A stretch of 64,000 bases of DNA, taken from a virus. The notes below the pieces were generated by a model that was not told the origin of the DNA, did not search any database, and was given only the letters and a program-made list of their open reading frames with translations. The DNA lies in IMG/VR virus record IMGVR_UViG_3300032163_000002, positions 77,028-141,027 of that record. One strand, given 5' to 3'. A program made the translations under genes and the position numbers. The first letter of the stretch is position 1; each line of letters begins with the position of its first letter. Positions 34,595 through 58,603 of the stretch are shown here, one piece after another.

Positions 34595-34981
34595 TCAGCC
34601 GTGTTTAACGGCTGCCTCTTCGTTCTGGAAATTTTGAACACTGATAAGATAAGACTCTAATTCCTCGATTGTCAAGCATTCTTTTGACGAAAACATTTCC
34701 AAAGGTAAGTTAAGAGCGTGCAGGGAGTGCTCGACAAAAGGATAGAATTTGTTTTCTTTTACTATCCCGGCAGAAACGTCATAGAGCAACATTCCAACCA
34801 TCAAGAATTCTCGTGCCGTAATGGCTTGTACACCGTAACCGTTTTTGAAAAACCAATGGCGAATCTCCGGGTCCGGAATGTCTTTCCCTGTACCACGAAA
34901 ATGCAGAAGAGCACTCGTAAGTTGAAAATCCCATACCGGGTCCAACCGCTCAATAAATGTTGGATTCATGTATATCCGCAT
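34595..34981 (-). CDS. Hypothetical protein
   Basis: ORF tiles the operon. Confidence 0.6.
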   Translation of the reverse strand: MRIYMNPTFIERLDPVWDFQLTSALLHFRGTGKDIPDPEIRHWFFKNGYGVQAITAREFLMVGMLLYDVSAGIVKENKFYPFVEHSLHALNLPLEMFSSKECLTIEELESYLISVQNFQNEEAAVKHG

Positions 34982-34989
34982 AATCTAAA

Positions 34990-35096
34990 TGCCAAACTTT
35001 CTTTTGAATTTGGCTACGAAGGGGTGAGATGTGTCGGAACTCATGTGCGGAAAGGAGAGAAGGAGAGAACGCTCAGGAGATGACACACCTCACCCA
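34990..35096 (-). ncRNA. Structured intergenic RNA with an anti-Shine-Dalgarno loop
   Basis: 14-bp stem GGGUGAGGUGUGUC/GACACAUCUCACCC enclosing GCG-UUCUCUCCUUCUCUCCUUUC-CGC; second hairpin GCCAAA..UUUGGC downstream. Confidence 0.55.
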
Positions 35097-35105
35097 CAGG
35101 ATTTT

Positions 35106-35603
35106 TTAAGACACTGTCTGCATCTGTTTGTTAGAAAAAGAATGTTGTAACGCAAGTAGAAGGCAAGCACGTAAGAGCGCAATTTCAGGAGTCGGTCCAT
35201 ACGCGATTGCCTTCATTTTTGCTTCCGTTTCCCACCAGAGAGCTTCATCGTTTAGATTGCCTCCATGAGGGCCACATTCAATTTCATAGGCATGAAGGCC
35301 AAATCCAGCTACATAAGCTCGATCTTTTGTTACCGTTTTCAAGTTTTCTGTAATGGACAACGGCCATGTATAGGAAACAGAAATACCAGTTCGCAGTAAT
35401 GATGCTACTTCCATGATTTTTTCGAAACTAGTATAATGAGGAATAGTACAAAGCTTTTTGGCATCCGTAATACCATAAATGATTCGTCCAACAAGAGCAT
35501 TTAAGAATGTGGGAGAACCAACGAGAATAGAATCTCTTAGCTCCTGATAATTTTCAGGAAGTTCTTCTATCCGTTTTTGTGTTGCCATACTCACAATCTC
35601 CAC
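35106..35603 (-). CDS. Hypothetical protein
   Basis: C-terminal AYGPTPEIALLRACLLA motif, seen in small phage proteins. Confidence 0.6.
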   Translation of the reverse strand: MEIVSMATQKRIEELPENYQELRDSILVGSPTFLNALVGRIIYGITDAKKLCTIPHYTSFEKIMEVASLLRTGISVSYTWPLSITENLKTVTKDRAYVAGFGLHAYEIECGPHGGNLNDEALWWETEAKMKAIAYGPTPEIALLRACLLLALQHSFSNKQMQTVS

Positions 35604-35605
35604 CG

Positions 35606-35923
35606 TTAAACATTTCCAATTTCATCAAAAAGTAGTTGTTTCAGTTCTCGGTAAGCACTTAATTTTCCCTCAAAATAAAGATCCATGTACGAAGAGCTAC
35701 CTTCGTGAAGTTTAACGTGTTCTTTGATGATTTCTTCTACAATGCTTTTGAAAAGAATAAGACCTTCGCGGCGGCTATCCATTGTAAGAATTTCAACTAT
35801 ACGAATTAGTTTTTCACGTTCTGGAAACCGATCAAGTTCATATTGCATCAACTGACGGACACGGTCCCGAACTTGTCGGGCCGTATCCGCCAAAGGACGC
35901 TGCTGCGTCGCTACGACACTCAT
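35606..35923 (-). CDS. Hypothetical protein
   Basis: TAATG coupling to the tail fibre gene. Confidence 0.6.
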   Translation of the reverse strand: MSVVATQQRPLADTARQVRDRVRQLMQYELDRFPEREKLIRIVEILTMDSRREGLILFKSIVEEIIKEHVKLHEGSSSYMDLYFEGKLSAYRELKQLLFDEIGNV

Positions 35924-56000: not shown

Positions 56001-56910
56001 CCATTGGTGTAGGCACCCTCGCCGCAGTAGGCGTAGCCGCTGCTGCTTCAAAAACTGGATAAGGAGTTTTTACAGCCGTAGCCATAGCAGGTGCAGGAGC
56101 AGCAATCTCAGGAGGAGGAATATTTACCACACCCGGAGTAGGAAGCACCATTTCCGGAGAAGGAACATGTGCAGCCGCAGGTGAAGGAAGTTCAATTTCA
56201 GGTGGAGGAATTTTAGCAGCCGTAGCCACTGTCGAAGTAGGGGCAGGGAGCATCATTTCCGGAGAAGGAACATGTGCAGCCGCAGGTGAAGGAAGTTCAA
56301 TTTCAGGTGGAGGAATTTTAGCAGCCGTAGCCACTGTCGAAGTAGGGGCAGGGAGCATCATTTCCGGAGTCAACGCCTTCATTGCAACAGTCGCAGGAGC
56401 CGCCATTTCAGGAACAGGAATTCCTGCTGCCATAGATACAGGAGCTGCTCCCTTTGGAGCAATATACGGCGTCTTCGTAGCAGTTGCTACCGGAGCTTCC
56501 TTTCCAAGTATCGGAACTTTTGTCGGAGTAGATAACGTCCTTACACGTCCCGGTAAAGGCACTAATGTTTCTGGAAGTGGCGCAGTTTCCGGAGGAATAA
56601 ATTTTGAAACTGCCGCTAAATTTTTCGCCATGATCGGTGTAGACACCGCAGGCGCAACCTTCATACTCGGTTGGGCTTTAGCGAAGCTCTCTTGTGCTTT
56701 TAATATCGACCCAACAGCTTTTCCTTGCCGAGCCGAACTGTCTTCCCATGCCTTTGAAATCCTCGTAGCACCACGAATCTGATTTTCAACAGTGGCAGCA
56801 AGATCCCGATCAGCCTGCTGAAAAGAGCCAGAAAGCTCATTTTCCGCCGACATTTTGAAGCGGAAACCCGCTGCATCAACACTACCAATATCAGTGTCTT
56901 CGTTAGCCAC
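53089..56910 (-). CDS. Tape measure protein with Pro-rich N-region and C-terminal M15-like peptidase domain
   Basis: Long Ala-rich helical core; H..GSKHYAGMAADIR...GPHLHVE; located after the chaperone genes. Confidence 0.82.
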   Translation of the reverse strand: MANEDTDIGSVDAAGFRFKMSAENELSGSFQQADRDLAATVENQIRGATRISKAWEDSSARQGKAVGSILKAQESFAKAQPSMKVAPAVSTPIMAKNLAAVSKFIPPETAPLPETLVPLPGRVRTLSTPTKVPILGKEAPVATATKTPYIAPKGAAPVSMAAGIPVPEMAAPATVAMKALTPEMMLPAPTSTVATAAKIPPPEIELPSPAAAHVPSPEMMLPAPTSTVATAAKIPPPEIELPSPAAAHVPSPEMVLPTPGVVNIPPPEIAAPAPAMATAVKTPYPVFEAAAATPTAARVPTPMVLPAPAPTMAGAPAPAMAAPVAKTVSPEMGDFAEKMEGQYAKAGISSDKFTESLRKNAAKGGSALYGQSSELAKFYDELEKPEPFEHYQKKAIVSTAAVDAAFKKSTMEGLNFVQANRQELEKIVERYRFFGKEVPKSLDQAVKALDKYEKKVEQAGKSSKTMFGTVEQFLTRIKGIGVGESILGGLAIAVGKKTLDKAEATYKMAQEASHLTLMSGEADLGKRYTEIANVQAITGATLAELQKVNVALSRGPVIRLADFKEGAKTALELRDATGLATEEAGALISTWQQYYNISGKALDEQAKKSALVAKISGVTVEEQASLYEQLKYVRFGLTDNANATKNIADSTLKAAANMSLYGMKAEAVVNDTKSLLEGGMAEGQKGLQALILGGASPQEAMQMLADLENGVEGAAERIQTFKNQAAASVRGMFGNVPMGSFAARDVMLQMGIAPTGEIANQRVAAGGGPGYLGESVAGKQLAQMGKGGPEATKMMEEAWKPYFTAGENVAKAQEKAWGVITEQQKKAYGTLLHAAEKLNLAADKFAGKALSLGEGTKGMLGVAEQTLIWGTVVKMMLPQVKKLFGIGEKAVPTIIEGATKAAPSAIKTGLEVTKDAGVAVRALKAAKYANLGRHVAGGVASLGTSILLDLELHRLTDKLGDIIANRTDKRGEKGFFDMRFASKVITDNIAKEMSEQSVQMAAKARKYGAPDLAEKFEEFNKKTAGKGATYAELEPLQAEYAKLVKELRDFHVKTSEEMTSDVAKVTEKKTETFTDLSRAAEHLDHAATTFEFKKFVAPMSYNEKLSETPGKANVADIVKIAAAYGATATSTTGGKHVSGSKHYAGMAADIRTKDRTEREIEELILAYKTAGYKVGDERKPTGREEWSGPHLHVETTPKAASAERVLSGTAVASTAVKPYTGKTQGDESILAELRRANAILAQQLAVLQHRKNTSGAPQFSRESEALNRGGMGG
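56149..56369. repeat. Perfect 105-bp tandem duplication (35 aa, ~2.1 copies) in the tape measure gene
   Basis: catttccggag recurs at 56149, 56254 and 56359 with identical intervening sequence. Confidence 0.93.
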
Positions 56911-57089
56911 TAGGTTCTACCTTTTATTTCCCTCTGCTCAAAATCTCGTTGCTCCTGAAACTTTCTGAGAAACGCTTTTCTATCATAGGTTGGCATTGCT
57001 TCAATATCAGACCATGATTGGTGAACATGATACATGAGAGTAAAATATTCGTTATACAGATTTTCCCTTTCCACGCTTGTTAGCACGAA
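56910..57089 (-). CDS. Second tail-assembly chaperone segment (T4 gp51-like), probably reached by frameshift
   Basis: NEYFTLMYHVHQSWSDIEAMPTYDRKAFL resembles gp51/TAC-GT C-domains; no SD-supported start. Confidence 0.65.
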   Translation of the reverse strand, partial: FVLTSVERENLYNEYFTLMYHVHQSWSDIEAMPTYDRKAFLRKFQEQRDFEQREIKGRT

Positions 57090-57903
57090 AAAAGGAGGCC
57101 GAAAACGGCATGTCCGCCTTAAAATAATTTCCACATCGAGGAGCCTGACACTCCAAATCCAATGCGGTAATGACTCCGGGAGTGGTCTCTTCTACGGCTT
57201 CTTTAAGAGTGCTGATATCTTCCCCAATGAGATTCTCAATAAAACGCAAAGCCGCCGAAATTTCGTAAGGCTTACCATCAACCGACAAAACATGCTTTGC
57301 CATGCGATAAATGAAAGCTGGATCGCCTGCTTCAAGTCCATGTGCCTTTGAAGTCTCTCGACGGGTATATCTGATGATGTCCGCGTCGTCCTTACCCCGA
57401 AGAAGACGAAATTCGACGTTCACCTTCAACCGAGGAAGCATGATTGTAAACGGTTCCCTGAAATCATCTGGTGCCATCTTCAACTCAAAATCTTCAGGAA
57501 TTTCACAGGACGCATCCACCCGAGCGCCGCAATCCGGGCATTTAGTTGTGAACTCGTAATGACTACCATAACTATTCGCTCGAAGAACCAGCATCAAATA
57601 GAATTTGTCAGATGAGAGCATCTCATCCACCGAAAGCACCAGTGCTGGATTAGGGTCCGACTTCATGCACCGCTTCAAAATGATGTCAAAAATTTCTGAC
57701 ACGTTCGAAGCTGTCATCCCGGCAACGAGTGCTTCCTCACGTCCAGTAATGGGGAAAAGCTCTACGAGACCAGTAGGGCACTTGTCACTATAAAGCTTCC
57801 CCCGAGAGGGAAGCTCCACGATGCCTGTAGTGCGAAGGTGATTATCCGATGCGGAAATTGAAGCCGCAATCGGGACAGGGGCTGTCTTGAGATCCGTTGT
57901 CAT
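57052..57903 (-). CDS. Tail assembly chaperone/baseplate hub assembly protein (T4 gp26-like)
   Basis: VELPSRG, LVLRANSYG..Y, CPDCG, FRLLRGKD; AAGGAG SD. Confidence 0.8.
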   Translation of the reverse strand: MTTDLKTAPVPIAASISASDNHLRTTGIVELPSRGKLYSDKCPTGLVELFPITGREEALVAGMTASNVSEIFDIILKRCMKSDPNPALVLSVDEMLSSDKFYLMLVLRANSYGSHYEFTTKCPDCGARVDASCEIPEDFELKMAPDDFREPFTIMLPRLKVNVEFRLLRGKDDADIIRYTRRETSKAHGLEAGDPAFIYRMAKHVLSVDGKPYEISAALRFIENLIGEDISTLKEAVEETTPGVITALDLECQAPRCGNYFKADMPFSASFFRANKRGKGKSV

Positions 57904-57939
57904 AAGCGTTCTCTCCTTTTCTCTCTCTCTCCGAATAAT

Positions 57940-58530: not shown

Positions 58531-58603
58531 ACTGCGTTTAACATTCGAAAATCGGAAGAAAAAGAGCGCCTTTACAGACCTCCCTATACATCAAAAATTA
58601 AGT

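Follow-up and report, generated by a model that had tools for sequence, protein, structure and literature searches.

Can the loop of an RNA hairpin at the distal end of a phage late gene block control the translation of a gene that lies more than 20 kb away? The question is raised by a gap of 124 nt between two minus-strand ORFs (35106-35603 and 34595-34981) of an uncultured T4-like myovirus, in which a hairpin displays a pyrimidine loop complementary to the ribosome-binding site (RBS) of a distant baseplate hub gene. The gap lies in the window analysed here, a stretch of 64,000 nt at the very end of an IMG/VR virus record; the record spans 141,027 bp, has a GC content of 47% and carries terminal repeats of 109 bp.

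Genomic context of the hairpin

The kinship of this phage to GenBank sequences is distant. The closest matches to its hub protein, identified by tblastn, are found in Bacillus and Listeria phages at ~30% identity and are annotated as baseplate hub. Neither DNA nor protein searches of GenBank phages returned any match to the hairpin locus or to the 165 aa gene upstream of it. From ~64000 down to 33616, all genes of the window are carried on the minus strand and constitute the late tail/baseplate block; the plus strand carries no gene between 33616 and 64000. Three genes beyond the hairpin, plus-strand genes converge on the block. The neighbours of the hairpin are tail-fibre-like genes and small late genes without known function. 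The T4-type late promoter TATAAATA gave a single match in the window, corresponding to chance level, and the late-promoter motif proper to this clade is unknown. The features of the hairpin region are as follows.

35106-35603, minus strand: 165 aa gene on the upstream flank (160 aa if started at 35588), of unknown function
35022-35095, minus strand: stem-loop RNA in which an outer stem of 14 bp (35082-35095 with 35022-35035) leads through an imperfectly paired inner stem to a CU-rich loop at the apex
35050-35075, minus strand: anti-RBS segment, formed by the 20-nt loop (35050-35069) and the adjoining UGAGCG (35070-35075), predicted to pair with the hub RBS, spacer and start region
34991-35014, minus strand: a second hairpin, small and weakly terminator-like, that immediately precedes the start codon of the 128 aa gene
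34595-34981, minus strand: 128 aa gene on the downstream flank, of unknown function, which opens the set of three small genes that end the late operon

Homologues of the 165 aa gene were found in relatives at 41-61% identity, and homologues of the 128 aa gene at 45-54%. The 165 aa protein matched no Pfam or PHROG family, and its AlphaFold model (pLDDT 76) bore no more than a weak likeness to 1r7l, a functionally uncharacterized Bacillus cereus phage protein with an ABA-sandwich domain. An invariant motif, AYEIECGPHGG, was observed in the protein encoded at 35106-35603 on the minus strand. A plus-strand ORF at 34718-35083 was rejected as a gene, because the minus-strand genes that it overlaps encode conserved proteins. 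A 9-codon frame that follows a plus-strand Shine-Dalgarno (SD)-like tract was likewise rejected, both minus-strand neighbours being conserved.

Structure and conservation of the hairpin

Relatives were retrieved via both flanking gene families from 5.8 billion proteins, giving four lineages and two fragments; the first relative was found through the 1641 aa gene. Alignment-based scans of viral and metagenome contigs yielded nothing beyond the contig of that first relative. The lineages, of which A is the phage of the window, were represented by the following sequences.

Lineage A: hairpin in the window; hub leader in the window
Lineage B: hairpin on IMG/VR contig L002; hub leader on L012 and L015
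Lineage C: hairpin on L005 (also L006); hub leader on L010 (also L011)
Lineage D: hairpin on L007 and L008; hub leader on L041

The hairpin contig and the hub contig of lineage B overlap by 4,237 nt at 100% identity, and lineage C carries both hairpin and hub on a single 28,267-bp JGI contig. The loop and target of lineage D are located on two contigs of Logan run SRR18214521, which have not been shown to be one genome. A remoter contig, L009, encodes a 165 aa protein homologue that is 41% identical, and has neither the intergenic gap nor the hairpin. Finally, phage E (hub protein 50% identical; contigs of 96 and 144 kb) has no homologue of the 165 aa gene, and no distal anti-RBS element was found within 19 kb downstream of its hub gene.

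The gene content between the 1641 aa fibre-like gene and the 165 aa gene varies among the lineages (window 35606-35923; L007 6408-10000; L002 14903-14952). The interval holds a 105 aa ORF in lineage A and a pair of PKD-domain genes (639 and 558 aa) in D, and it is empty in B and C.

An inverted-repeat search of the minus strand defined the outer stem of the hairpin, in which 35022-35035 pairs with 35082-35095 over 14 bp including one G-U pair. The minus-strand RNA folds with a minimum free energy of -31.6 kcal/mol (z -5.9, or -5.4 in another fold), and none of 200 shuffled sequences was as stable. The unpaired 20-nt loop, UUCUCUCCUUCUCUCCUUUC, occupies 35050-35069. The initial annotation had proposed this 14-bp stem with its single G-U pair (35082-35095/35022-35035), a claim that held, and folding of both strands confirmed the hairpin (z -5.9 sense and -4.8 antisense in A).

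A long hairpin is kept in the equivalent intergenic gap in 4/4 lineages, syntenic in L002, L005/L006 and L007/L008. The z scores of the sense-strand fold were -5.9 in A, -3.1 in C, -3.3 in D and -4.2 in B, against -4.8, -1.75, -2.6 and -2.1, respectively, for the antisense strand. The free energies of the two strands are equal in A; the sense strand is lower in C, D and B because of G-U pairs, which are confined to that strand. Comparison of the 14 outer-stem pairs of A and C identified seven identical pairs, two with one-sided changes, five with two-sided compensatory changes and none broken. Stem pairs were counted by script; the MAFFT alignment of the four hairpins was not structure-aware and hence no covariance model was built. 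The CU-rich tract is unpaired in all lineages: in A, B and D it makes up the apical loop, 15-25 nt long, and in C it falls within a large internal region that is open. Lineages A and C share an unchanged loop core, GAGCGUUCUCUCCUUCUCUC, even though their flanking proteins are merely 54-60% identical. The structure of the hairpin, its conservation and its preference for the sense strand are thus demonstrated. No Rfam family matched the window at gathering score, and the matches near the hairpin at E<=10 were two chance-level hits to unrelated families.

The hairpin of A does not meet the criterion for a Rho-independent terminator, as its outer stem encloses 46 nt and is followed by CUUCGUAGCC; a terminator scan of A flagged solely the small second hairpin at 34991-35014. 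A U-rich tail follows the stem in C (UUUUU) and B (AUUUUCUUCU), with none in A and D, and some partial terminator activity of the hairpin is possible in relatives C and B. A small hairpin of differing sequence occupies the equivalent position in B (L002 15525-15545) and, as read by eye, in C and D (L007 10573-10595). It covers the SD of the 128 aa gene in B and D; in A, the 128 aa gene has no recognizable SD. The start of the 128 aa gene lies no more than 40 nt after the stem in each lineage (40 nt in A), and the proximity of this gene indicates that the hairpin belongs to a polycistronic late RNA at least part of the time.

The hub-assembly gene and its leader

The gene to which the loop is complementary lies within the tail/baseplate block. 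It and its surroundings comprise the following features.

57052-57903, minus strand: hub-assembly gene, 283 aa, gp26/gp51 family, the presumed regulated cistron
57901-57933, minus strand: target initiation region, which runs from a GA-rich tract through the SD AAGGAG and the spacer AGAACGCUU to the AUG at 57903-57901
57940-58506/58530, minus strand: endonuclease VII-family gene, inserted between the ancestral hub leader and the hub gene in A
58554-58575, minus strand: cis anti-SD of the ancestral hub leader, upstream of the endonuclease VII insert, which sequesters the endonuclease RBS (z -3.2)

The product of 57052-57903 matched PF12322 at 4.1e-12 over profile positions 9-207 of 219, and phrog_150 ('baseplate hub'). 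T4 gp26 and gp51 both match PF12322. These T4 proteins are hub-assembly chaperones, and gp51 is required for assembly yet absent from the particle (PMC3004832). A short ORF (41 aa; 31-49 aa in relatives) was observed between the hub gene and a 1273 aa tape-measure-like gene (window 56910-57100).

The hub RBS of A is open, with no cis sequestering helix in the hub leader (z +0.56). A cis anti-SD strand in the hub 5' leader closes the SD and spacer with a 12-15-bp helix in B, C, E and two AT-rich relatives. The sites of this leader helix are L015 9898-10012, L010 5598-5702, L016 9880-10012, L024 1340-1445 and L025 1345-1445, and the cis anti-SD leader is kept down to 39% hub identity in AT-rich and GC-rich genomes alike. 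From sequence alone, the helix looks like conserved cis control of the hub gene, and its closure of the hub RBS in relatives implies that hub translation is widely throttled at the RNA level.

The leader has also received mobile genes. Downstream of the endonuclease VII insert of A, the hub gene is preceded by a second RBS, which is open; the distal loop matches this hub-proximal site. The insert is absent from B and C, and E carries an endonuclease VII gene upstream of the leader. In lineage D, the matched RBS is separated from the hub gene by an HNH endonuclease gene (L041 1498-2007), and a short SD 11 nt past the HNH stop codon belongs to the hub gene itself. We infer from these arrangements, without functional evidence, that the loop addresses the hub cistron directly in three lineages and a bicistronic HNH-hub unit in D. 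Mobile nucleases appear to have landed repeatedly in a translationally gated hub leader, and to have taken the leader over.

Complementarity between the loop and the hub RBS

Positions 35060-35073 are the exact reverse complement of 57905-57918, with a loop-target distance of 22.8 kb, and each 14-mer is unique in the 141-kb genome. The exact inverted 14-mer is not significant by itself, there being 13 such pairs in the window. The duplex between the loop and 57904-57933 had a predicted energy of -45.8/-45.9 kcal/mol, compared with -27.3 kcal/mol for the next-best of 243 crudely defined gene starts. When both strands of the whole genome were searched, the hub RBS was the top non-self site, at -43.3 kcal/mol versus -33.0 kcal/mol for the next. 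Shuffling the loop while keeping its composition gave a mean best-target energy of -27.0 +/- 2.5 kcal/mol with an extreme of -37.3 kcal/mol, and 0/150 shuffles reached -45 kcal/mol. Elsewhere in the scanned IMG/VR contigs the exact 18-mer core occurred just once, within an unrelated coding sequence; the scan may have left out the window's own genome and its near relatives.

GA-rich extended SDs are common in this phage, and several other RBSs of A reach -20 to -27 kcal/mol with the loop. Cofolding of loop and target predicted a net gain of -9 to -19 kcal/mol after the cost of unfolding both partners. The cofold model opens the outer stem of the hairpin, and full pairing of a closed 20-nt loop is topologically limited.

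The RBS of a large NHL-repeat fibre-like gene (1637/1636 aa) was the second-best match to the loop in C (L005 5053-5093) and D (L007 1433-1473), with energies of -37.9 kcal/mol in C and -32.7 kcal/mol in D; the values in A and B were -18.8 and -12.9 kcal/mol. This RBS may be a lineage-specific secondary target in C and D, a possibility that we raise tentatively.

Covariation of the loop with its target

Hairpin and hub RBS are separated by 21-27 kb across the lineages, and the hub-leader RBS was the best non-self site for the loop in each of the four phages. Duplex energies of the own pairs were about -43 to -46 kcal/mol in A, -51.4 in B, -42.7 in C and about -50 to -52 in D, and the next-best sites in all available sequence reached -33.0, -34.6, -37.9 and -31.9 kcal/mol, respectively. 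The hub start of C is preceded by AAAAAGGGAGAGAAGGAGAGAACGCUC-AUG and forms a 22-bp ungapped helix with the C loop, and GCGGAGAGAAGAGAAGGAGAGAGCG-AUG of B pairs over 25 bp with the B loop CCGCUCUCUCCUUCUCUUCUCUCUGC. The corresponding GAUGAGAGAAGGAGAGGAACGCUC-GUG of D pairs with the D loop over 21 ungapped bp, or over 28 bp with one mismatch. The own-target helix of A comprises 16 ungapped bp and an imperfect extension. The complementary stretch takes in the GA tract, the SD and the spacer; in D it includes the start codon as well.

Across phages, the longest ungapped helices were mostly 8-16 bp. The 4x4 matrix of loops and targets showed clear specificity for loop B (-51 kcal/mol with its own target vs -31 to -36 with the others) and loop D (-50 vs -30 to -40), and a slight preference of loop C for its own target. 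Loop A was promiscuous, being nearly equal on the A, B and C targets, and formed a longer helix with the C target (25 bp) than with its own (16 bp). The changes specific to a lineage are mirrored in loop and target: in B, GAGAAGAGAAGG (with an extra AGAGA) and a GAGAGCG spacer; in D, an AUGAGAG extension and an extra purine before AACGC, which is paired as G-U. The complementarity of loop and target and its covariation are therefore established, and independent drift of two unrelated sites is excluded as the source of the mirrored changes. Such mirroring points to selection for complementarity or to continual copying between the sites. The covariation evidence is limited to four lineages, and A and C have an identical core.

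These results allow the remaining claims of the initial annotation to be assessed. The exact complement 35060-35073/57905-57918 held, each 14-mer being genome-unique, as did the claimed pairing at 20 of 21 positions, with one G-U and one C-A. The target had been called a tail-assembly chaperone, and this is corrected to a gp26/gp51-type hub-assembly protein (PF12322), not a gpG/GT-type protein; the label 'chaperone' is loosely right in the sense of a hub-assembly factor. The shorter matches that had been listed for other RBSs were not conserved, and the fibre-gene RBS is a strong second in C and D alone. Covariation in related phages and ranking of targets had been put forward as checks: covariation was positive in every available lineage (4/4), and the hub RBS ranked top against the GA-rich background. 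The reading of the element as an anti-RBS RNA is supported by this covariation; its transcription, the sign of its effect and the proposed 'feedback' remain inferences.

Proposed mechanism

We favour, with moderate confidence, a model in which the loop pairs with the hub RBS and represses hub translation. Production of the RNA, pairing in vivo, repression and a function in hub supply are each inferred, and no expression data are available. The hairpin RNA would be a sense-strand product of the late tail/baseplate operon, with a CU-rich loop of 15-25 nt displayed on its outer stem as an extended antisense copy of the hub initiation region. The acting form may be part of a long late mRNA, or a hairpin fragment left by termination or processing. 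The U-rich tails in C and B are suggestive of partial termination, after which a stable 3' hairpin fragment would remain. Base pairing of the loop with the hub RBS would block 30S binding, and the loop/RBS duplex may in addition become a substrate of RNase III, as is expected of a duplex of at least 20 bp by analogy with icaR (PMC3868564). The predicted outcome is limited synthesis of a protein that is needed in small, chaperone-like amounts. Regulator and target would derive from one operon in equal amounts, the regulator appearing once the polymerase reaches the operon end. An attractive, untested consequence would be that the supply of a catalytic, low-copy assembly factor is shut off after a delay.

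A need for hub control is plausible because relatives sequester the hub RBS in cis and because T4 gp51 is absent from the particle (PMC3004832). Several observations speak against the model. The hub RBS of B and C is already closed in cis, so that an added trans repressor seems partly redundant; the matched RBS of D drives an HNH insert, indicating that hub regulation is not strictly conserved; and the helix of the A loop with its own target is shorter than that with the C target (16 vs 25 bp).

A bolder reading, which we infer and regard as unlikely, is that the hairpin serves as an operon-length timer within one giant late mRNA. The hub cistron at the operon head would then be translatable solely while the polymerase travels the 21-27 kb to the distal hairpin, whereupon the transcribed anti-RBS loop would close the first cistron, in cis or in trans and in equal amounts. 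The nucleating chaperone would be made in a short early pulse, and fibres and wedges would keep accumulating. If true, this would represent long-range 5'-3' communication over ~20 genes in a DNA phage, a mode undescribed for T4-like phages.

Alternative explanations

The anti-RBS model has to be weighed against other readings of the same data. It is conceivable, though unlikely, that the pairing is real and that control runs in the opposite direction, the GA tract of the hub leader acting on the hairpin side to control read-through, translation of the 128 aa gene, or stability and processing of the late mRNA 3' end. In A, the gene right after the hairpin has a poor SD or none, another small hairpin is present downstream in A, B and, by eye, C and D, the U-rich tracts after the hairpin in C and B resemble an intrinsic terminator, and the hub RBS of B and C is already shut in cis, all of which would suit this explanation. 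We nevertheless favour the anti-RBS reading because a long stem displaying a long pyrimidine loop at its apex is the usual format of an antisense regulator and not of a target, and because the complementarity always spans the SD, spacer and start region, as a translation block would need. Moreover, A and D lack the U tract, and no alternative structure was found that links occupancy of the loop to the downstream start. Similarly improbable is that the hairpin is mainly a terminator or mRNA stabilizer with a generic anti-SD or ribosomal-protein-S1-binding tract in its loop, so that the match merely reflects low complexity and common descent. GA-rich SDs are indeed common, several RBSs reach -20 to -27 kcal/mol, loop A is nearly as good on the A, B and C targets, U tracts follow the stem in C and B, and the window contains exact inverted 14-mers about as often as chance predicts. 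Against this stand the lineage-specific changes mirrored in loop and target of B and D, and the lead of the hub RBS over the next site by 10-20 kcal/mol in A, B and D and ~5 kcal/mol in C. Composition-keeping shuffles never approached the real value, and the 18-mer core was found elsewhere only once in the scanned IMG/VR contigs, in an unrelated coding region.

We consider it least credible, and very unlikely, that both sites act at the DNA level, as inverted repeats in dsDNA for a DNA-binding protein or recombinase, or are kept alike by recombination. Such repeats would serve inversion or rearrangement of the 21-27-kb tail module, or would be endonuclease-related sites. The two sites are indeed inverted repeats of 16-25 bp that flank the baseplate/fibre module, and mobile endonuclease genes are present at the hub leader (endonuclease VII in A and E; HNH in D). 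However, one site alone lies in a hairpin, with a compensatory stem and G-U pairs specific to one strand, and inversion would separate hub gene and RBS, leaving a frame of 9 codons. Furthermore, the similarity ends at the edges of the RBS, and no recombinase was found among the neighbours searched.

Comparison with known systems

The c4 antisense RNA of the P1/P7 immI operon offers the closest phage parallel to the proposed anti-RBS hairpin. It too is a phage RNA that lies in the operon of its target and not opposite the target, and complementary bases in the loops of the folded RNA pair around the RBS to block translation (PMC12197685). The c4 loop and its target differ together between related phages, as in the heteroimmunity of P1 and P7. 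Loop-presented complementarity to an RBS that covaries between related phages is found here as well, and the resemblance to c4 is functional only. Unlike the present element, c4 is encoded a few hundred nucleotides upstream of its target and pairs through two short loops; RNase P excises it, and the gene under its control is an antirepressor of a temperate phage. The hairpin described here has a single loop with 16-25 bp of complementarity, is situated 21-27 kb downstream in a virulent-type T4-like late operon, and has a morphogenetic target. Membership of the c4 family is not supported, with no Rfam match and no icd/ant antirepressor cassette nearby.

The icaR mRNA of Staphylococcus aureus provides a second parallel, in which a distal C/U-rich anti-SD motif pairs with the SD at the head of the mRNA (PMC3868564). 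The pairing blocks initiation and creates a substrate for RNase III, and regulator and target are equimolar in one transcription unit (PMC3868564). The icaR-type feature of complementarity over the SD of the regulated cistron is met here. In contrast, icaR is monocistronic and uses a 7-nt motif located a few hundred nucleotides away, whereas the present partners are separated by ~20 genes, share a far longer complementarity and place the motif in the loop of a conserved hairpin; whether they belong to one RNA is unknown. We infer from sequence alone that the hairpin resembles c4 RNA and icaR pairing in its action, and is a member of neither family.

T4-type phages are a textbook case of protein-based translational control combined with local hairpins. 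In the cis RBS hairpins of T4-like phages (e, soc, 49, I-TevI and mobE), a late or endonuclease gene has its SD and start paired to an anti-SD strand (PMC3014915). Helices of this type are present in the hub leaders of the relatives and in the endonuclease VII leader of A, as an element separate from the distal hairpin. The T4 hairpins are local within one leader, in contrast to the distal hairpin, which represents a second anti-RBS copy tens of kilobases away. Among bacterial regulators, Firmicutes sRNAs with C-rich loops (the RNAIII hairpins and RsaE/RoxS) bind G-rich SDs by unpaired C/U loops and repress translation. These sRNAs are host-encoded, with short seeds and many targets, whereas the present hairpin is phage-encoded and has one dominant target, with a match that extends past the SD.

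A review published in 2010 stated that no trans-acting regulatory RNA had been characterized in T4 (PMC3014915), and in the literature that we searched we met no account of an element of this kind acting on a late morphogenetic gene in a lytic myovirus. Set beside c4, icaR and the T4 leader hairpins, the hairpin represents a covariation-backed candidate for an RNA that regulates the phage's own morphogenetic, chaperone-like gene from more than 20 kb away in one operon. The four natural loop/target pairs constitute a ready specificity matrix, which makes the hypothesis directly testable with reporters.
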